From a virus, in the UHGV virus genome UHGV-1560991: a stretch of DNA of 11,913 nt; one strand, given 5' to 3'. Below are positions 3,203 to 11,733 of the stretch, piece by piece. The stretch's first letter is position 1, and every line of letters begins with the position of its first letter. The notes beneath the pieces were generated by a model. The model did not search any database. It had not been told where the DNA came from and saw only the letters and a list, made by a program, of their open reading frames with translations. The position numbers were made by a program, and so were the translations under genes.

Positions 3203-3279
3203 GTGGCATTAGCTCAGCTGGACAGAGCAACTGCCTTCTAAGCGGTTGGTCGCAGGTTCGAATCCTGCATGCCACGCCA
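3203..3279 (+). tRNA. tRNA-Arg (anticodon UCU), argU-like
   Basis: 77-nt cloverleaf read by hand: acceptor GTGGCAT/ATGCCAC, D-stem GCTC/GAGC, anticodon stem ACTGC/GCGGT (one G-U pair), loop CTTCTAA giving anticodon TCT, T-arm GCAGG-TTCGAAT-CCTGC, discriminator G, encoded CCA. Close to E. coli argU as I remember it. Confidence 0.9.
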
Positions 3280-3477: not shown

Positions 3478-3858
3478 ATGAACGACCAGCAAATCGAAAA
3501 AGAAATCGTTGAGAAAGGTAAAACCGCTCCGCGAATCACCCCGCAGCACATCGAAGACGTGATTAAAAGCGAGCATTACTTTACTGCTTATGATGGACGA
3601 AATGGTGCCATTTCCAGCAACGAATATTGTGGCAGGGAAAAACCAGAAGAAGGCGATCGTGATTTATCACCATTGAAGTTGCTCACTTTCTGCGTACTGG
3701 TGCTGAAGAATGGCTTCACCGTCACCGGAGAGAGTTCCTGTGCAAGCCCGGAAAACTTTGATGCAGAAATTGGTCGGAAGATTGCCCGGCAGAATGCTGT
3801 AAACAAAATCTGGATGCTTGAAGGTTACTTGCTGAAGCAGAAGTTAAGCGAGCAATAA
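3478..3858 (+). CDS. Small plus-strand phage accessory protein (126 aa), possibly Gp49-like family
   Basis: Clean ORF with AAGGTGAG 5 nt upstream of the ATG. It is transcribed opposite to the flanking terminase and portal genes and is followed by a hairpin terminator. The family guess is a weak recollection. Confidence 0.6.
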   Translation: MNDQQIEKEIVEKGKTAPRITPQHIEDVIKSEHYFTAYDGRNGAISSNEYCGREKPEEGDRDLSPLKLLTFCVLVLKNGFTVTGESSCASPENFDAEIGRKIARQNAVNKIWMLEGYLLKQKLSEQ

Positions 3859-3948: not shown

Positions 3949-5424
3949 TTAAGCATAGGGATCGTAATCTGTGATGGCCTTGCCTTGCTGGTTCTGCTGC
4001 CCGGGAATTCGCAGACGCTTCGACACAGGGAACGCAAACGTCAGCAGTAGCGCATCGCCTTTACCCGGCGAACGCCCAAGCCGCTCCTTGATATCTTCCT
4101 TCGGTTCAATAACGATTTTACCGTCCACTCGAACTTTGTACTCTGCCGCCGACAGGTCGTCTGCTGTTTCCTGGTCATCAAGCATGCCGCCCAGCCTCAG
4201 CCATGTCTTACATGAGTTGAACATCTCCCCACGCTTGTTGAGCATCTGCGGGTCAGTAGACGCGCCACCGAATGGAACAAGTTGCCATGTACGTCCCCAG
4301 CCATCACCGATTGACTTCAAACCGGTTCCGTAACCGAAGTCGATGAACACCGCGTCAGCCTGGTACTGGTCTTCAAAGTCAGCGATACGCTTCGCCATAA
4401 TCAGATCGTCGGTGGTCTTGTTGCCGGTCCACAGCACCTTACTGTGCAGCCCCTGCCGCAGGTATATCACCGCTTCATCAACACCGGAGTATGCAGGGTC
4501 AACGCCGATTATCACCGGAGCATGTGCCACCTGCGCAGCAGTTACCACCCGTTTCATTGCCTCGTCAGTAAGACCGGTAGGGATAAACTGCAATTCAGAT
4601 GCATCAGGGAATATGCCGCGCACACGGATTTTAACGAAGTCGCTGTCTTCCCCGTAGTCATCAACCCATTTCTGCAACTGCTGTTTGTTAGTGCCTTCCA
4701 CCGTCCGGCTGTCAATCTGCGCAGTTTTCCAGCGGTGTTTATATTTGCGGAAACATTCGCGGAAACGACCGGTATTACGCGTCGGGTTTCCGAACGCCAC
4801 CCAGATGATTTCGGTGTCTTCGTCCGTCAGCGCACCCTCTGCTACCTCCCACACCAGATCGGCAATGTTGGATGCTTCGTCGAATACCACGATGATGCGT
4901 TTGCGCTCGTTGTGTAGTCCAGCGAATGCCTCAGTGTTGTGCTCAGACCAAGGGATTGCGTCAGCTCGCCACCGCTTGTCGTGCCCAGGATCATTGCTGT
5001 ACATCGCGGTAGCGGTACAGGTAAACCAGTCTTTCGTGATAGCAAGGTTCGACCACTTGATAATTTCCGGCCAGGTCTTCGTTCGTAGCTGGTTGTCGGT
5101 GTTGGCGGTCACCACGACCTTACAATCCTCGCAAGTGGACATGCCCCAGTTGATCAACATTGAGATGAATGCTGATTTACCAATACCGTGACCCGAAGCA
5201 CGTGCCAGCATAAGCGGCTGATAGCGCGTCTCGGGATTCTGCAGGTGATCACGTATCTCTCGGAACGCATCGGCCTGCCACTGACGTGGGCCGGTAGCAT
5301 GTGCCAGTTCAGTCCCCTCTTCCCCCCAAGGGAACGCATAGAGGGCATAGCCAAGCGGATCGTGAGTGAACCCTGCAATATCCTCGATCAACTGCTCTTC
5401 AGGAGATAACGCTGTATTTGTCAC
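3949..5424 (-). CDS. Terminase large subunit
   Basis: 491-aa ORF with a Walker-A-like ARASGHGIGKS motif near the N-terminus, acidic motifs consistent with an ATPase plus nuclease domain, and a start overlapping the stop of the upstream small-subunit gene (5421/5424). Confidence 0.85.
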   Translation of the reverse strand: MTNTALSPEEQLIEDIAGFTHDPLGYALYAFPWGEEGTELAHATGPRQWQADAFREIRDHLQNPETRYQPLMLARASGHGIGKSAFISMLINWGMSTCEDCKVVVTANTDNQLRTKTWPEIIKWSNLAITKDWFTCTATAMYSNDPGHDKRWRADAIPWSEHNTEAFAGLHNERKRIIVVFDEASNIADLVWEVAEGALTDEDTEIIWVAFGNPTRNTGRFRECFRKYKHRWKTAQIDSRTVEGTNKQQLQKWVDDYGEDSDFVKIRVRGIFPDASELQFIPTGLTDEAMKRVVTAAQVAHAPVIIGVDPAYSGVDEAVIYLRQGLHSKVLWTGNKTTDDLIMAKRIADFEDQYQADAVFIDFGYGTGLKSIGDGWGRTWQLVPFGGASTDPQMLNKRGEMFNSCKTWLRLGGMLDDQETADDLSAAEYKVRVDGKIVIEPKEDIKERLGRSPGKGDALLLTFAFPVSKRLRIPGQQNQQGKAITDYDPYA

Positions 5425-6017
5425 TGATTACCATCCTGACGTTCTTTGAGTCGCTTCCTGGCTGCTGCTATGCGATCAGCAATTGTCACATTCACATTAA
5501 CATCCAGACGTTCTTTGAACGCGTTGACATCAACATGCTTACCAATCAGCTCAAGGTTCTTCACCTTGTCAGGCCATTTAATTTTTTTGAGGATTGTCTC
5601 TATCGAATCCTCGTTCATGTTCATGATGGTCGATGACAGATCAAAGCCACTAAGCGTAGTGCGCCAGATTTTCGGCCACTCACGGATTGGTTTAAGGCTC
5701 CCATCGTCGTTGAGGATGTCGATCACGTCCATCTGGTCGATCTCCACCAGGCGCATGAGAACGTAATCAGCACTGACGCGCATTCGTTTGTTGCGCTCCT
5801 CCATCAACTCGGCAATCCGTTTTTGAATGCGTTCATCGCGCATCATGACACTGGCTTTAACTGCCGCTGTATTTGGGGAGAATCCTGCGTTAATCGCTGC
5901 CTGAGTCTGGTTCTCAGGCGTTTTGATGTATGACTGGCAATAAGCCTCCTGCATTGCTGTGAGCGGCTTAAATTGCGTTGATTTGCGTTTATAGGTTTTA
6001 GGTTCAGCAGGCATCAT
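5421..6017 (-). CDS. Terminase small subunit
   Basis: ORF directly upstream of and overlapping the large subunit, with a basic N-terminal region (MMPAEPKTYKRKSTQFKPLTAMQEAYCQSY) typical of terminase small subunits. Start set at the internal Met pair (6017/6014) because the longer track ORF (to 6095) would run through a terminator hairpin at 6061..6086. Confidence 0.75.
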   Translation of the reverse strand: MMPAEPKTYKRKSTQFKPLTAMQEAYCQSYIKTPENQTQAAINAGFSPNTAAVKASVMMRDERIQKRIAELMEERNKRMRVSADYVLMRLVEIDQMDVIDILNDDGSLKPIREWPKIWRTTLSGFDLSSTIMNMNEDSIETILKKIKWPDKVKNLELIGKHVDVNAFKERLDVNVNVTIADRIAAARKRLKERQDGNQ

Positions 6018-6060
6018 AACCACCGTGGTAATAGTTACCGTTGTGGTGATAGTACCATGC

Positions 6061-6086
6061 AAAATAAAGCCGCCATAGTTGGCGGC
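6061..6086 (-). terminator. Rho-independent terminator-like hairpin upstream of the packaging operon
   Basis: On the minus strand: GCCGCCA-ACTA-TGGCGGC (7-bp stem) followed by TTTATTTT, beginning 6 nt after the stop of the 6092..6325 gene. Confidence 0.45.
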
Positions 6087-6091
6087 AGTAT

Positions 6092-6325
6092 TCAAAGTCC
6101 ATCAAATTCATCGTAAAAACTCTCGTCAAGATACCCTTCCCATTTACCGCGAATGAAAATTACATCCTCGCCGCAAGGGTGCTGACTGTCGATAACTATA
6201 TCCCTCCTGGCGCAACCATACTTATGCATGAGAAATTTAACCTCTTTCGGAAAATTTGCTGAGTTATCTCTCATATCTTCAAGGTCGTAGCGTATTTTTG
6301 GCATAACACATCCGTGACATGTCAC
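6092..6325 (-). CDS. Hypothetical small protein (77 aa as in ORF track; alternative start MPKIRYD at 6304 gives 70 aa)
   Basis: ORF between the 113-aa gene and the terminator. No family recognised. The 6325 start lies inside a perfect 12-bp palindrome, so the internal Met may be the true start. Confidence 0.5.
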   Translation of the reverse strand: MTCHGCVMPKIRYDLEDMRDNSANFPKEVKFLMHKYGCARRDIVIDSQHPCGEDVIFIRGKWEGYLDESFYDEFDGL

Positions 6326-6326
6326 A
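6312..6326. repeat. 15-bp element CCGTGACATGTCACA containing the perfect palindrome GTGACATGTCAC (copy 2)
   Basis: Exact 15-mer shared with 3861..3875. Lies at the 3' end of the 113-aa gene and the 5' end of the 77-aa gene. Both copies are preceded by ATAACAC and followed within about 30 bp by GCCAGCC. Confidence 0.5.
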
Positions 6327-6663
6327 CTATTAATTTCGTTTCATGCCAGCCTTTGGTCACCCAGCATTGCGAGTCACCATTACACGGGCATGAATTCACA
6401 GGAACTCTCTCGCCGCACTTACCGCAACGTTTTCTGCTGATCGATTTTATACGCCCGCGCACGCGTGCATCATCCTGGCGGATCAGTAACGCTATATACT
6501 CACCAAATTCGTAAGGCGCACGCCCGGGGCGACGTGTGGCACAGTTACGCTCCAGCATTTCAATTTCCTGAGCATCAAGCACAATCTCCAGCTTACGTAC
6601 ACCGGATTCAGCTTGTCTGGCTCTCTGAGCGGCTTTGCGCTCTGCTGCTGATTTAGCCATCAA
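6322..6663 (-). CDS. Hypothetical protein with an N-terminal ribbon-helix-helix-like region and a C-terminal Cys-rich (zinc-ribbon-like) region
   Basis: The N-terminal segment (ERKAAQRARQAESGVRKLEIVLDAQEIEMLERNCATRR) resembles the small LexA-regulated CopG/RHH-type protein YbfE as I recall it. The C-terminus carries CGKCGERVPVNSCPCNGDSQC. Overlaps the upstream gene by about 11 nt. Confidence 0.5.
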   Translation of the reverse strand: MMAKSAAERKAAQRARQAESGVRKLEIVLDAQEIEMLERNCATRRPGRAPYEFGEYIALLIRQDDARVRGRIKSISRKRCGKCGERVPVNSCPCNGDSQCWVTKGWHETKLIV

Positions 6664-6934
6664 TATTTACCTTTATCGCGAACACCTTTACCGGTTTATC
6701 GCCGAAGTGCGGATGTGTGATTGTCTTGATTTCATATCCGTCATACGGAACATCAATTCTGCGACTGAAATCGTCGCGCTTCGGATATCCCTTTGTGATA
6801 ACCAGGCGGCCATACTCGCGGAACATAATTCGCTTATTCCAGTAGTCATTACACAGGCGATACTCTTCCGTTTTCTGCCCGCGAATCATGGCATCGAAGT
6901 ATTCACCTTTGACGGCAAGTTGCAGGTTAGCCAC
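6653..6934 (-). CDS. ASCH-domain protein (about 94 aa from a GTG start)
   Basis: Contains the ASCH-type GxKxxExR signature (IRGQKTEEYRL). Proposed GTG start at 6934..6932 has AGGAGG 6 nt upstream and removes most of the overlap with the upstream gene. The ORF track's ATG at 7015 would overlap that gene by about 88 nt. Confidence 0.6.
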   Translation of the reverse strand: MANLQLAVKGEYFDAMIRGQKTEEYRLCNDYWNKRIMFREYGRLVITKGYPKRDDFSRRIDVPYDGYEIKTITHPHFGDKPVKVFAIKVNIDG

Positions 6935-7577
6935 GGTTAACCTCCTGCGGCGGTTCCGGTAGCGGCATCCAGTGAGTTGCTTGCTCAATACCATTACCCG
7001 GCTTAATCGTTGCATCTCCGCGCCGAAAGGTGCTTCCGGTATAGCGTGCGGAGCATATTAGCGGTTCAACCAGAGAGCTATCGAAATTCACCGAAATAAG
7101 CACGTTCTGGCCCTTTTCCGGCATTCGCTCACTACAGCTTATCCAACCATCCGGAGTTACCGGATAGTTGCCGGGTTCTTTAATGTGCAAGCGAGGCTCA
7201 CCATCTTTTGGCTCAGGCCACTGGCGCTCCATGTTGATCTTCAATTTATCTTCCATAGCAGCGGTAATTTCAGCATCGCTGATGCCAGCACGGCGCTGTG
7301 CATCCCACAACAGAAACTGCATATCAGCCCACTCGCTAAGATCGTCTGGTTCGGCTGCGGCTTCCAGTGCCTCTTTTGAGAGATGTTTCAGCGGACCAAT
7401 GGGGCCAACGCAGCCAAATGTGGAGTCAGACCATTTGGCATGCTCGTGGCGAATCAGTTCGCGTTCCAGTGATGCCAGTGCAATTCGTGCCAGTTCCATT
7501 TGTTCGCCACGAGTAAGCCCGTTTTCAAGCGGATTTTTAATGAACAATTCAATACGTTCTTTGGTAATAGTGGTCAT
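6927..7577 (-). CDS. DUF550/DUF551-type phage protein (N-terminal region possibly of the dATP/dGTP pyrophosphohydrolase-associated family)
   Basis: 216-aa ORF with AAGGA upstream of the ATG. The C-terminal THWMPLPEPP motif is the characteristic DUF551 signature. The N-terminal half is assigned to DUF550 by recollection only. Confidence 0.7.
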   Translation of the reverse strand: MTTITKERIELFIKNPLENGLTRGEQMELARIALASLERELIRHEHAKWSDSTFGCVGPIGPLKHLSKEALEAAAEPDDLSEWADMQFLLWDAQRRAGISDAEITAAMEDKLKINMERQWPEPKDGEPRLHIKEPGNYPVTPDGWISCSERMPEKGQNVLISVNFDSSLVEPLICSARYTGSTFRRGDATIKPGNGIEQATHWMPLPEPPQEVNRG

Positions 7578-7587
7578 TTGTTAGTCC

Positions 7588-8343
7588 TTAAACTGCTAGT
7601 TGCAATTGCATTTCAAAGCGGTCGCGTTGTTCACAATACGCAAGAGAACCAGGGCTATTGTGTGCCTCAATCCGTTCTACCATTAATGCTGCGCGTGTCT
7701 CTTTACTTGCAGGTGCATAAGCCCCAGACCAGGCTTTATCAATACCGATGTTTCGAGCGACGTTCGTACTATCTGCGCTGGCTAAGGGTAATTTTGTGAA
7801 TATCAGCGGATTTAACATGCGCAATCCATGTAGTTTCGTAACCGGCTGACCATGCCCATCAACAATGTGACGAATCAGGTCTTTCATTCTGGCTACCGCA
7901 AGAGTTGGGCGCTTTACGTCATAGTCGCCACAACTACCGATAGCCACTCGCGGAAACTCATTGCACAAATGAATAAATCGCGCGTCACTTTCATTCATGT
8001 GCCACACTGGAACGCCAGCTAGTTTTCCGTGAGGCCACTCATTCAGAAGCGCATCATTTTCCTCCTCTCCGCCATCAATAATATCCGGGATAATGGCAAA
8101 ATCGAATCCTGGGTGATTCTTCCAGCGAGCAACAAACTCGTAGTAATCGCTCCAGTCGATTTTGTTTTTGCCAGCTGCTTTCCAGGCGGTGAATGCACCG
8201 TTGTCCAGCGCGAACGACTGACAGTATTCAGCCGCGAGATTGATCTGGCCTGAATGCGCAAAACTGATAAACGCATGTCGCCCTTTCCATGCTCTCATTG
8301 CGCACGTATCAGGAGTAATAGGCCCACCGTGGTAGTGAATCAT
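7588..8343 (-). CDS. tRNA-guanine transglycosylase (TGT) superfamily protein, DpdA-like (candidate DNA 7-deazaguanine transglycosylase)
   Basis: By-eye alignment to E. coli Tgt motifs as I remember them: LDNGAF vs TDSGGFQ, FAIIPDIID vs IVMIFDECT, AIGSCGDY vs AVGGLAVGE, LHGLRML vs LMGVGKP, ASADSTNVARN vs FDCVMPTRNARN (nucleophile Asp region). No C-terminal CxCxxC...H zinc motif. Start placed at MIHYHGG (8343), which has AAGGAGAG upstream and sits 1 nt after the Ea22-like stop. The track's longer ORF starts at 8376. Confidence 0.55.
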   Translation of the reverse strand: MIHYHGGPITPDTCAMRAWKGRHAFISFAHSGQINLAAEYCQSFALDNGAFTAWKAAGKNKIDWSDYYEFVARWKNHPGFDFAIIPDIIDGGEEENDALLNEWPHGKLAGVPVWHMNESDARFIHLCNEFPRVAIGSCGDYDVKRPTLAVARMKDLIRHIVDGHGQPVTKLHGLRMLNPLIFTKLPLASADSTNVARNIGIDKAWSGAYAPASKETRAALMVERIEAHNSPGSLAYCEQRDRFEMQLQLAV

Positions 8344-8344
8344 C

Positions 8345-8896
8345 TCACTCTCCTTTGATGCGAATGCCTGTTGCAATGCTGTTTATGATGCTGTCAGTGC
8401 ATGGGGTAGAAAGCTGGGCATCTCCAGCAATTCTCATGACCTCAACATCTGCATATCGAATACCGAGGTGTATCAGACCGGCTATACCTGACTTAAGCCG
8501 AGCATTTTCCATAAACAGATCCTTTGCACGCTGTTTTTCTGCCTCAAGCTCAACGCGCAACTTCCCTACCGTTAACGCAATATCCTCGTTCTCTTGGTCG
8601 CGGCGTTTGATGTATTGCTGGTTTCTTTCCCGTTCATCCAGCAGTGCCAGCACGGTAGCCGGATTGGCTGCGGCGATGAATTCAGCATTGGCCTGCTGTT
8701 CTATTTGGAAATCTTCATCGAAACCGCTTTCAGGATGCGCTCCTTCAATTCTGCAAATGGGAATATATCCAGCAGCCTCGCGATGAATTAGCGCATCATC
8801 ACCATCAAATCGGCCCTCTCCATATTCGAGCGACCACTCGCCACACGTTGCTTTTTCTGCCTTAGCACGCAGTGCCTGATAATCAATCTTGCTCAC
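8345..8896 (-). CDS. Ead/Ea22-like family protein
   Basis: The N-terminus MSKIDYQALRAKAEKATCGEWSL is the characteristic Ea22-like opening, followed by a coiled-coil-like central region. Start overlaps the upstream stop (8893/8896). Confidence 0.75.
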   Translation of the reverse strand: MSKIDYQALRAKAEKATCGEWSLEYGEGRFDGDDALIHREAAGYIPICRIEGAHPESGFDEDFQIEQQANAEFIAAANPATVLALLDERERNQQYIKRRDQENEDIALTVGKLRVELEAEKQRAKDLFMENARLKSGIAGLIHLGIRYADVEVMRIAGDAQLSTPCTDSIINSIATGIRIKGE

Positions 8897-9588
8897 TGGA
8901 TGACTCCTTTACGAAGCTGTTCAGCGATATCTTCGAGAACGCCATCAGAGAATGAGCGGTCAAAATCGCCTTCCGGCGCATTAGCCATAAACTCAGTAGA
9001 GGTAAGAATCATCCGGGCAATATCAGCGGCGTTCTTCGCAGTATCATCAATAAAACCAGCTTCCCAGGCAGCCAGCATTCTGTTCGCCACAAAGTAAGCG
9101 CCCTCCTTGCGTGCTTCAGTCTTCACTTCAGCCAGGAAATCATCGGTGGCTGGGTGTTCTGTCTGGCTATGCATTACCCATTCAGATAAGTACTCGAAGC
9201 AACGGCGAAACTCCTGCCAATCACTGCACATGTTTAGGTTTCCGCCTTCACACTCGAACTGGTAATTCTCTAAACGGTCTGCAAACGCTCTGCCATTCTC
9301 GATGGCACCAAGTGGAGCTTCAGACTTCAGCCCAGCATTCTCCGCCGCCAACGCCGAAAACTTCTCGTGTGCCAACTTAACAGCCGCATCAGCCTGCTTA
9401 ATTGACTCAATCGCTTTCTGGTGGTCTTCGGACAGCGCATTAGCACGCACCAGTTGCACTTCCAGTTGCGTTGCCAAATCGCTGATCAGCTTTGCCACAC
9501 TGCGCATATCAACGGCACCACATTCAGCTTTCAGTTCCGAAGCCATCTCATGCCCGGCGGCAACTAACTCTTTGATATTACTTTCCAT
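8893..9588 (-). CDS. Hypothetical phage protein (231 aa) with an N-terminal coiled-coil-like region
   Basis: Long clean ORF, translationally coupled to the Ea22-like gene. No family recognised. Confidence 0.65.
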   Translation of the reverse strand: MESNIKELVAAGHEMASELKAECGAVDMRSVAKLISDLATQLEVQLVRANALSEDHQKAIESIKQADAAVKLAHEKFSALAAENAGLKSEAPLGAIENGRAFADRLENYQFECEGGNLNMCSDWQEFRRCFEYLSEWVMHSQTEHPATDDFLAEVKTEARKEGAYFVANRMLAAWEAGFIDDTAKNAADIARMILTSTEFMANAPEGDFDRSFSDGVLEDIAEQLRKGVIQ

Positions 9589-9649: not shown

Positions 9650-9994
9650 TCAGAACTCTTCGATGTTCCAGCCACCACCTGCTTTCTTTGGTTTAACCGT
9701 TACCCCGATGATTCGGAACGGATACTGATCTGCGGCGACTTTGGTTTTCACTCTGGCGTCGTCGGTCCAGAAACCTTTCACTTCGTGCAGTTCCATCTCG
9801 CCGGTGGCGAGCATCACAGCAAAATCGGGCGTATAGAACGTGTTGTCAGCTAACCGAAGCTTGATACCCTCAAATCGATACCAGACGATTTCTCCTGCAC
9901 GTTTACGCAGCTCAAGGTGCTGGCAATACGCAGATTCTGTTTTGTTCATCTGGCCTGTTTTGAGTCGACCAAGAGCCTGTATCTGTTTTCTCAT
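9650..9994 (-). CDS. DUF1064-family protein (small PD-(D/E)XK-like phage protein)
   Basis: 114-aa ORF with YTPDF...ELHEVKG spacing reminiscent of a D...E-x-K nuclease-like core. This family is common in lambdoid nin-type regions. GAGGGA lies upstream of the ATG. Confidence 0.75.
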   Translation of the reverse strand: MRKQIQALGRLKTGQMNKTESAYCQHLELRKRAGEIVWYRFEGIKLRLADNTFYTPDFAVMLATGEMELHEVKGFWTDDARVKTKVAADQYPFRIIGVTVKPKKAGGGWNIEEF

Positions 9995-10111: not shown

Positions 10112-10912
10112 TTACTTGATAAATCCTGCCGCCTTTCCCCGCCTGTATTCCTCCATCAGCCACTGCGCCGGTGTTATTCCCCCCAGGGTGGCGGCGTTAG
10201 GCATGCACCCGAAACTTCGCCCTGGCGGGTGGTAAACGTCTCTCCCTGTGTCCGGAGGCGTACTCATGGGTTCTGGCTTTGCCTGTATGCTGATCACCGG
10301 ATCGGGTATCTGCTGTCCGGAAGCCACCTTTTTCGCCCAATCATCGAGCAGCCTGCGCGCGTGTTTCTCAACCTCAATCTCGCTAAGCTGGCGCTGATAC
10401 ATTGCACGGCGGGTGTCACATACAACCCAGTACATAACCGGATGCCGCCACGGGAATCTTTCGGGACCACCAGGATATAAACTTTTTTCCTTGCTGTACC
10501 GGTGAAACTCCGCCATCACATCGTCAATGGTGACGCCAAGAACCATCTTGCTGTCTTTACACCACTTGATGAATTGCCCTGGCGACGGCCAGAACGGAGA
10601 TTCACTGGCGCGGGCGTGGCGCATACCAGCAGAAACCTGTTCACGGGTTCGGATCCCCCCTTCGGCAAACGCAGCAATCCACTGCTGTTTTGCAGCAGCT
10701 TCCTGCTCTGGCGTCTTCAGGTTGGTTACCACTGCCGCTGGAAACAGTTGTTTCAGCTGTTTGAAAAGGGCATCAACAAGCCTCTCTGCTGACATGTTCA
10801 CCACGTTGTCATTGTTGGTGTACTGATGCTCATAACCTGACATGCGAGAAAGGGCTTCTCCGTCACGGTTTTGTATCGCGGTAAAAACGTTGTTCACAAG
10901 AAATCCTCCCAT
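10112..10912 (-). CDS. Replication protein P-like (DnaB helicase loader, lambda P family)
   Basis: Collinear similarity to lambda P as I recall it: GIRTREQVSAGMRHARASESPFWPSPGQFIKWC vs GITTMEQVNAGMRVARRQNRPFLPSPGQFVAWC, plus an earlier LFPA vs TFPA match. Alternative GTG start at 10897 has GGAGGA 6 nt upstream and forms a GTGA overlap with the O-like stop. Confidence 0.85.
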   Translation of the reverse strand: MGGFLVNNVFTAIQNRDGEALSRMSGYEHQYTNNDNVVNMSAERLVDALFKQLKQLFPAAVVTNLKTPEQEAAAKQQWIAAFAEGGIRTREQVSAGMRHARASESPFWPSPGQFIKWCKDSKMVLGVTIDDVMAEFHRYSKEKSLYPGGPERFPWRHPVMYWVVCDTRRAMYQRQLSEIEVEKHARRLLDDWAKKVASGQQIPDPVISIQAKPEPMSTPPDTGRDVYHPPGRSFGCMPNAATLGGITPAQWLMEEYRRGKAAGFIK

Positions 10913-11733
10913 GCTTCAGGGCTGTTCCAGTGCGGAACGTTGTTATCAGGTAATGTTGATTGCTTCTGTCTGCTAATCTGCAGCCGCCTTGCCAGCTTCT
11001 GCTCCCACTGTGCCTGATGGTATGCCTTACCCTCAGCCATCCAGTAAATTCTGAACTCTGCAAGTTCCTGTGCCGTTGGCAGACTGTCCAGGTAGATCCC
11101 CTGCAATGAGCTTTTCCGAAGAAAGTCATCTGATGGCTGCCATTGTTCATGCATGACAAATTTGCCTAATTGCCCTGGCCCACCAGGAGGAACAAAGTTA
11201 TTCATCACGGCGTTGTTTGCGCCGGGGTCATGAGGCACAGAATCCCCGGTTTTTGTCCTGCTCTCCCTCTCTTGGTTAAATGACTGGTTATATGACTGGT
11301 TCTGGATCCCGTTTTTGGGATCATTCAACATCCCGTTTTTGGGATCATTCAACATCCCGTTTTTGGGATCATTCAACATCTCGTTTTTGGGTATATTCCC
11401 GTTTTCGGGAACATTACCGTTTTCGGGTTCATTACACCCATCTAGGTTGCCTTTAATGTTCCCTTTTTTGGTTATATTAAGAGAGAAAACCCGCACTCTT
11501 TTCGTCGCTCCCTTTCTCTCTCCGGTATCTGAAATAAGCCCCATTTTCATGAGCGATATAAGCCCGGCCTGTACGGTTTTTTTATTCAGGCAAGTGTCTT
11601 TAACGAGGCGTTCTATGCTGGGGTAGCAGAGGTTATATTCATCGGCTCTGTCAGCCATCGAGAGCAGTATGAGCTTTAATGACGAGCTACCTGGATCTGT
11701 CTCCCAGGCCCAATCTGTTGCATGTCTGCTCAT
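10894..11733 (-). CDS. Replication initiator O-like protein (N-terminal HTH DNA-binding domain, internal iteron-encoded repeats)
   Basis: 279-aa ORF immediately upstream of the P-like gene. The coding sequence contains tandem iteron-like DNA repeats that translate to PKNGMLND three times. The N-terminal region looks like a helix-turn-helix domain. Confidence 0.8.
   Translation of the reverse strand: MSRHATDWAWETDPGSSSLKLILLSMADRADEYNLCYPSIERLVKDTCLNKKTVQAGLISLMKMGLISDTGERKGATKRVRVFSLNITKKGNIKGNLDGCNEPENGNVPENGNIPKNEMLNDPKNGMLNDPKNGMLNDPKNGIQNQSYNQSFNQERESRTKTGDSVPHDPGANNAVMNNFVPPGGPGQLGKFVMHEQWQPSDDFLRKSSLQGIYLDSLPTAQELAEFRIYWMAEGKAYHQAQWEQKLARRLQISRQKQSTLPDNNVPHWNSPEAWEDFL
11303..11435. repeat. 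Iteron array (putative phage origin of replication) inside the O-like gene
   Basis: Two exact 24-bp tandem units CATCCCGTTTTTGGGATCATTCAA (11329..11352, 11353..11376), a near-copy ending at 11328 and a degenerate fourth unit at 11377..11400, then two CCGTTTTCGGG units about 19 bp apart. Each unit has TCCC...GGGA dyad symmetry, like the lambda ori iteron TCCCTCAAAACGAGGGA. Confidence 0.75.

Follow-up and report, generated by a model that had tools for sequence, protein, structure and literature searches.

Adjacent ASCH-fold, DUF550-DUF551 and DpdA genes in a temperate enterobacterial phage are probably independently shuffling accessory genes

Three adjacent minus-strand genes in the virus genome UHGV-1560991 encode a small ASCH-fold protein, a DUF550-DUF551 protein and a TGT-like transglycosylase, and raise the question of whether the three form a functional unit. 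The window, that is, the whole stretch of DNA that was analyzed, is 11,913 nucleotides of a prophage, and the trio fills positions 6653–8343 exactly, with the stop codon of the ASCH-like gene at one end and the ATG of the TGT-like one at the other. A sequence-only reading had correctly placed three adjacent genes here and had proposed them as a candidate nucleic-acid modification or anti-defense module. The comparisons described here suggest that the trio is probably no dedicated module but a set of accessory genes, shuffled independently of one another, in a temperate enterobacterial phage. Only the TGT-like protein, a member of the phage DpdA family, has a credible role in DNA modification.

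Among 5426 complete Escherichia coli genomes, in counts uncorrected for shared ancestry, DpdA was found in 204, with nucleotide identity of 99% or more for 188 of the copies, and the full 1.69-kb trio was covered to at least 80% in just seven. In 3218 of the genomes, a total of 7271 places have DNA homologous to the DUF550/DUF551/ASCH part. The near-identity of DpdA despite its mosaic flanks suggests a recent spread of one allele across prophage backbones, five plasmid-borne copies included. Closely related prophages with the same backbone as the window were found in E. coli EBJ003 and 20KM2222, and that of EBJ003 carries DpdA and DUF550 with a 40-codon open reading frame (ORF) in place of ASCH. 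A megablast search with positions 6300–8950 gave no record covering at least 80% of this region among 531 phage and 3981 E. coli records, and the region is therefore highly mosaic.

The association was also absent in other genera, for which 33 DpdA loci (one genome per species, 42–90% identity) were compared from Dryocola, Erwinia, Pantoea, Yersinia, Proteus, Rahnella, Aeromonas and more distant metagenome-assembled genomes. DUF550 lies within 6 kb of DpdA in two of these loci and adjacent to it in none, and ASCH is absent from the vicinity of DpdA in all 33. All-against-all clustering of the neighboring genes yielded no conserved partner of DpdA, with none common to more than nine of 32 loci; a lambda-P-like helicase loader was among the clusters, being present at six loci. 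At six loci, from Pantoea and others, a phrog_536 gene, such as the one next to the ASCH gene in the window, follows straight after DpdA without DUF550 or ASCH between them. A Pfam census of the gene directly downstream of DpdA at 112 loci found DUF551 in 18, DUF550 in 11 (the window included), RusA in 10, MT-A70 in eight and Dam, NinB and GPA in three each, alongside others.

A further 80 viral contigs encode a DpdA 67–100% identical to that of the window, and the 14 in which identity was at least 98% were examined closely. In all 14 the next gene begins 11 nt past the DpdA stop, yet its content differs: an N-terminal leader with DUF550 and DUF551 in five, the leader with DUF551 in four, the leader only in three and DUF551 only in two. 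ASCH is nearby in three of the 14, none of which has DUF550. The leader, which spans 37 amino acids in the window (positions 7467–7577, minus strand), thus stands at +11 nt in 12 of the 14 contigs though the domains downstream of it differ, and the DpdA-leader junction is retained in 187 of the 204 E. coli genomes. Residues 1–48 of the protein match PHROGs of their own (3323, 10451 and 660). The leader is likely a recombination linker between gene modules of the 'ea' region.

Searches centered on the other two genes gave a similar picture. Among the 80 nearest relatives of the ASCH gene, the 66 loci with enough upstream sequence contain DUF551 in 59 cases, Ea22 in 56, DUF550 in five and DpdA in three, and none has all three trio genes. 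For DUF550, ASCH lies downstream in four of 65 loci and the complete trio in none of 64, and an Ea22-like gene is upstream in 63 of 79. Across diverged genomes, then, the three genes did not co-occur above their individual frequencies. The neighborhood analysis that the sequence-only reading had suggested as a check therefore came out against it, as the genes assort independently across prophages.

The families concerned are at home elsewhere. DUF550 (EaA), ASCH and Ea22 belong to the usual gene content of the mosaic 'ea' region of lambdoid phages and P22, which shares with the window the same families, DUF551 included, the same adjoining order (in ev017 and in Salmonella phage BTP1) and extreme mosaicism, and differs in that its ea block lies beside int/xis, whereas that of the window is upstream of the terminase genes. 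In the lambda-like phage ev017, DUF550 and ASCH adjoin xis/int, with Ea22 a few genes upstream and no DpdA. The grouping had been described as unfamiliar, but the order Ea22-DpdA-EaA(DUF550)-ASCH stands in the published genome of BTP1, so that both the components and the gene order of the trio are already known. The trio of the window lies between replication and terminase genes, that of BTP1 is beside xis/int with a 321-amino-acid EaA in place of the 216-amino-acid DUF550-DUF551 protein, and DpdA of SPN3UB belongs to the nin region, where a different 'Eaa' gene, without detectable DUF550, comes next. In Eeyore and KO-TP1, where DpdA is 68% identical, the neighbors are an exonuclease, or a PD-(D/E)XK protein and two methyltransferases (KO-TP1, locus L040, positions 4760–6504).

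The close spacing of the three genes does not set them apart from their surroundings. The stop of the upstream Ead/Ea22-like gene (8345–8896, minus strand; PF13935, E = 1.4e-34), a generic ea-region gene, is 1 nt from the DpdA ATG, and the DpdA stop is 10 nt from the ATG of the DUF550-DUF551 gene. Overlaps of 8 nt follow at the next two junctions, first between the stop of the latter and the GTG of the ASCH gene, then between the ASCH stop and the ATG at 6660. Such packing spans the entire minus-strand block, from the replication genes to the terminase, and close coupling is therefore not a property of these three genes. No intergenic terminator was found within the trio.

The TGT-like gene (7588–8343, minus strand) encodes 251 amino acids and matches phrog_887, 'queuine tRNA-ribosyltransferase', with E = 5.6e-102, in agreement with the transglycosylase assignment made earlier. 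The mechanically called ORF extends to a TTG at 8376, but the N-terminus typical of the family (MIHYHGG) and the homologues in RefSeq place the start at the ATG at 8343. Over its full length the protein has 92.4% identity to those of the Salmonella phages BTP1 (SIU02687) and SPN3UB (YP_007011024), which are listed as DpdA-only, in group 3, in Supplementary Data 1 of Hutinet et al. (2019; PMC6884629). That study describes a gamma-proteobacterial cluster of singleton DpdAs and leaves their functional divergence undecided. DpdA of the Pantoea phage MED16 is more distant (39% identity, BLASTP E = 2e-43), and hhalign aligned a family profile (A1) to the DpdA of Escherichia phage CAjan over 149 columns (94% probability, E = 1.4e-7). 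Judged by its sequence, the protein is a phage DpdA of the singleton class, a published family, and hence a candidate DNA 7-deazaguanine transglycosylase of the TGT superfamily. A record of 1719 bp labeled 'Staphylococcus phage SA 1298 Kay' (OR850331.1) also encodes a DpdA 92.4% identical to that of the window, equal to the Salmonella phage matches, and is probably mislabeled or a contaminating enterobacterial fragment.

The residues expected of a catalyst are retained. In an alignment of 20 sequences (19–93% identity, CAjan included), H5, D47, G49, A50, H115, E118, G136, H172, P186, D191 and S192 are invariant and F51 nearly so, which preserves the aspartate pair (the D-x-G-x-F motif and the nucleophile) and a conserved histidine. 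D47-x-x-x-F51 and D191 parallel D95, F99 and D256 of bacterial DpdA, as matched by motif pattern rather than superposition; in that enzyme Asp95 is the general acid/base, Phe99 provides stacking and Asp256 is the nucleophile. Identity as a canonical TGT or a bacterial DpdA was considered and rejected, as the protein has no match to Pfam TGT (PF01702) even at E ≤ 10, lacks the CxCxxC...H zinc site, with no invariant cysteine in the family, and is 251 amino acids long, compared with 375 for E. coli Tgt and 413 for the bacterial DpdA chain 7ui4_A. The DpdAs of CAjan, MED16 and PEAT2 likewise have no Pfam TGT match, and since that of CAjan is validated, the absence of such a match says little. Searches of PDB sequences with the single sequence (phmmer) and two profiles found no relevant TGT or bacterial DpdA, hhalign of a DpdA profile (A4) against E. 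coli Tgt gave a probability of 0.9%, and Foldseek returned generic barrels only. Compared with the bacterial Dpd restriction-modification system (DpdA/DpdB/DpdC; PDB 7UI4), the window has neither the DpdB ATPase nor the DpdC partner, and its DpdA lacks the zinc-binding insertion (Ins8, about 30% of the bacterial protein) and has no sequence-level or PADLOC match to that system.

Closer parallels are found among phages. Like CAjan DpdA (DpdA1), with which it is predicted to share the exchange of guanine for preQ0 in DNA, the protein has LD(N/S)GAF, xxH, KLH and (A/C)DS(T/S) motifs, whereas the C-terminal 50–100 residues of the two are unrelated. In CAjan, about 32% of G is modified, FolE, QueD, QueE, QueC and the YhhQ preQ0 transporter are encoded next to dpdA, and deletion of dpdA abolishes dPreQ0. 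None of these genes was seen in the window, where no que, folE or yhhQ family was matched among the proteins scanned against Pfam and PHROGs, so that host preQ0 would be needed and low-level modification is to be expected. E. coli and Salmonella encode the complete preQ0 pathway (Hutinet et al., 2019; PMC6884629). BTP1 and SPN3UB resemble the window in this respect, with DpdA in an early accessory region of a temperate phage and no preQ0 genes nearby. More distant DpdA-only phages show dADG at 0.02% of G (7-11) or about 0.13% of G (MED16), and Orion shows no DNA modification. The PEAT2 homologue adjoins a YhhQ/VUT preQ0-transporter gene (locus L123, positions 4531–4998), and the gene directly downstream of DpdA is a DNA methyltransferase at 13 of the 112 loci (MT-A70 eight, Dam three, C5 one, N6/N4 one), about as often as it is DUF550; both kinds of neighbor fit a DNA-modification role for DpdA. 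Such a role is inferred from this homology and the conserved catalytic residues, and the TGT-like gene is thus the part of the modification or anti-defense proposal that remains plausible.

The EaA-like DUF550-DUF551 gene (6927–7577, minus strand, 216 amino acids) bears both domains that had been assigned to it. The DUF550 domain (7167–7454, minus strand) matches PF04447, 'dATP/dGTP pyrophosphohydrolase', over residues 42–137 (E = 5.2e-42, 142.5 bits against a cut-off of 23, model positions 1–96 of 97), and DUF551 (6945–7148, minus strand), the C-terminal half, which has no assigned function, matches PF04448 over residues 144–211 (E = 2.8e-22). The all-alpha DUF550 domain keeps a MazG-type motif (E69-A-L-E72 ... 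E82-W-A-D85), which aligns with EEIGE and LEVAD of MazZ from cyanophage S-2L (7ody) in a pairwise match that is itself non-significant (E = 0.59). The sequence-only reading was right to link this family to dATP/dGTP pyrophosphohydrolase activity: the name of PF04447 derives from a DUF5664-DUF550 fusion of Acinetobacter phage SH-Ab 15497 that converts dGTP and dATP to monophosphates for the synthesis of Z-genomes, which contain 2-aminoadenine. DUF5664 alone has similar activity, and the assignment of the reference activity to DUF550 is therefore not clean. The window shares PF04447 and the EXXE...EXXD motif with the Z-genome enzymes (SH-Ab 15497 and S-2L MazZ), but has no PurZ, DatZ or DpoZ, and its DUF550 is fused to DUF551 rather than DUF5664. 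The domain is best predicted to be a MazG-like (d)NTP pyrophosphohydrolase acting on nucleotide pools independently of DpdA. The Z-phage enzyme feeds or clears deoxynucleoside triphosphate (dNTP) pools for replicative incorporation, for which a post-replicative DpdA has no need; 7-deazaguanines enter DNA by base exchange after replication and not from the dNTP pool, so that a dGTP/dATP pyrophosphohydrolase is not required. The suggestion that a purine-nucleotide hydrolase and a guanine-exchanging enzyme act together thus has no mechanistic necessity behind it.

The third gene (6653–6934, minus strand) starts at a GTG at 6934 preceded by AGGAGG and encodes 93 amino acids; a 120-residue ORF from 7015 was rejected as an over-extension, as its PHROG match begins at residue 28. 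The protein matches phrog_625 (E = 6e-48), and RefSeq names its homologues 'ASCH domain-containing protein'. The ASCH label is partly verified, holding at the level of fold, whereas the Pfam ASCH match (PF04266, residues 6–28 against model positions 1–23) scores too low (E = 0.066; 14.3 bits, the cut-off being 21.2). The AlphaFold model (pLDDT 86.8) has as its best Foldseek matches in PDB, with weak scores, 3iuw (E = 6e-3, probability 1.00), 2z0t, 1wk2, 5gus and YqfB 9kyh (TM 0.43–0.58), all of them ASCH proteins. From this model the product may be a small PUA-like protein with affinity for nucleic acid or modified bases, or else an amidohydrolase. No trio protein matched NCBIfam, and no PADLOC defense model matched the trio or its neighbors. 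The consistent partner of ASCH is the DUF551 gene just upstream, in 59 of the 66 loci noted above, and not DpdA; if any pair in the region is functional, ASCH with DUF551 is the candidate. The DUF550-DUF551 protein and the ASCH protein are best regarded as accessory functions in their own right.

How far the adjacency might still reflect a shared function can be weighed against these observations. That the full trio is a dedicated nucleic-acid modification or anti-defense module appears highly improbable. Its genes are contiguous and translationally coupled, the same order recurs in BTP1 and the seven E. coli genomes, and YTH and YqfB are among the fold matches of the ASCH model, ASCH/PUA-like folds being associated with modified-base binding. 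Tight packing belongs to the whole operon, however, and the trio is missing from every ASCH- and DUF550-centered locus and from all but seven of the 204 E. coli genomes with DpdA; ASCH is absent at all 33 loci of other genera and accompanies DUF551 rather than DpdA, and PADLOC recognizes none of the three proteins. A narrower proposal, in which ASCH is incidental and DpdA with DUF550 is a true two-gene unit of Escherichia and Salmonella that trims dGTP/dATP or a related guanine nucleotide to favor or complement deazaguanine modification, is unlikely, but it draws on points that weigh against independent shuffling. A DUF550-domain gene stands directly downstream of DpdA in 138 of the 204 E. coli genomes (68%), the pair recurs in BTP1 in a context unlike that of the window, DpdA lies upstream of 15 of the 79 nearest DUF550 relatives, above the naive base rate, and the Z-genome phages set an example in which DUF550 acts on dGTP as part of a pathway of base replacement. 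In addition, neighbors were detected by single-sequence phmmer, by which very distant ASCH or DUF550 relatives could be missed, the 112-locus census took in only the gene directly downstream, and the window is the sole part of the prophage visible, such that partner genes could lie elsewhere. The linkage of DpdA and DUF550 is real but restricted to the Escherichia/Salmonella lineage, and some of it may be selective there. Function was nonetheless rejected as the main reading of the 68% adjacency, as the linkage is gone outside these genera (no adjacency at the 33 loci), its breakpoints lie within the gene that follows DpdA, and it fades over the first few hundred bases past the DpdA stop. This pattern is as expected from physical hitch-hiking. 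DUF550 is moreover kept in only five of the 14 loci with near-identical DpdA and in a small share of the 112 downstream genes, SPN3UB lacks it despite a 92% identical DpdA, the validated CAjan cluster has neither DUF550 nor ASCH and no validated DpdA cluster has DUF550, the dNTP pool is no input to post-replicative base exchange, and the reference activity comes from a fusion whose DUF5664 part has it alone.

A different doubt concerns DpdA itself, which might by analogy have diverged from DNA modification toward another substrate, such as host tRNA or protein, leaving DNA little modified or not at all. Cap10 of the type IV cyclic oligonucleotide-based antiphage signaling system (CBASS) is TGT-like and acts on a 7-deazaguanine-modified protein N-terminus, and its appearance as the top match helped to prompt this idea. 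It would agree with the slight or absent modification in DpdA-only phages such as Orion, with the lack of any invariant cysteine, and of the insertion that holds the zinc site in TGT and bacterial DpdA, in a protein of this size, and with the divergence left undecided for singleton clusters (Hutinet et al., 2019; PMC6884629). It seems improbable, however, given that no Cap9/QueC-like or CD-NTase partner occurs in about 110 neighborhoods, that the catalytic motifs are common to the DNA-acting DpdA of CAjan, and that methyltransferase and YhhQ neighbors fit a DNA/preQ0 role. More doubtful still is a combination of these ideas, in which the enterobacterial singleton DpdA clade would consist of diverged, Cap10-like deazaguanine transferases. 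With preQ0 from the host, they would label a target other than DNA (host tRNA or protein) or very few regulatory DNA sites for counter-defense or lysogeny control, and DUF550 might be an occasional helper in Escherichia and Salmonella.

Under the preferred reading of independently shuffling accessory genes, the segment would belong to the accessory ('ea'/moron) region of a temperate phage similar to phiV10/epsilon15, a region of mosaic makeup transcribed within one long minus-strand message that would run from the replication genes (O-like, P-like and DUF1064) to the terminase. The adjacency of the trio would stem from recombinational assembly of the region and not from joint action, with DpdA as a highly conserved insertion between Ea22 and an EaA-type gene made up of the leader and DUF550/DUF551. 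DpdA would be expressed from the long early transcript in lytic growth or once the prophage is induced. Following replication it may replace guanine with preQ0 made by the host at particular sites in DNA, and the resulting sparse, low-level dPreQ0/dADG may blunt some restriction or other DNA-targeting defenses.

The rest of the window belongs, like the trio, to a minus-strand block of a phiV10/epsilon15-like temperate phage of enterobacteria. Upstream of the Ea22-like gene are, all on the minus strand, an O-like replication initiator with internal iterons (10894–11733, phrog_1032), a lambda-P-like helicase loader (10112–10912, PF06992), a DUF1064 resolvase-like gene (9650–9994) and an Ea-type gene (8893–9588). 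Tandem repeats at 11273–11435 inside the initiator gene (24 bp × 3.6 with 98% identity, 18 bp × 3 and 12 bp × 2.4) encode a repeated NDPKNGML peptide and are probably origin iterons. Directly downstream of the ASCH gene is a 'transcriptional regulator' (6322–6660, minus strand; phrog_536, E = 1.6e-54), followed in gene order by a phrog_1541 gene, the small and large terminase subunits and, beyond a tRNA-Arg and a plus-strand ORF, the portal gene. The tRNA-Arg (anticodon TCT; 3203–3279, plus strand) lies against the surrounding gene direction between the large terminase and portal genes, as does the ORF (3478–3858, 126 amino acids; phrog_322, no assigned function). Related E. coli prophages retain the tRNA-Arg, and the ORF slot holds other genes, of 296 amino acids in one and 140 in another. 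An Rfam scan around the trio matched only tRNA-Arg, and repeats there were short and at chance level. Between 5300 and 10200 (4.9 kb), no sigma-70-like site was found on either strand, compared with 6.4 ± 2.8 expected from shuffles, as would suit a long transcript that depends on antitermination, and possibly selection against promoters within it.

These findings remove a false but plausible module and illustrate that being neighbors in lambdoid ea/nin regions speaks only weakly for a functional link between genes. The use of host preQ0 by DpdA-only temperate phages, a question raised in 2019, concerns the DpdA-singleton family rather than the trio. The DpdA gene is present, with an identity of at least 99%, in about 4% of complete E. 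coli genomes, as well as in many other Enterobacterales.

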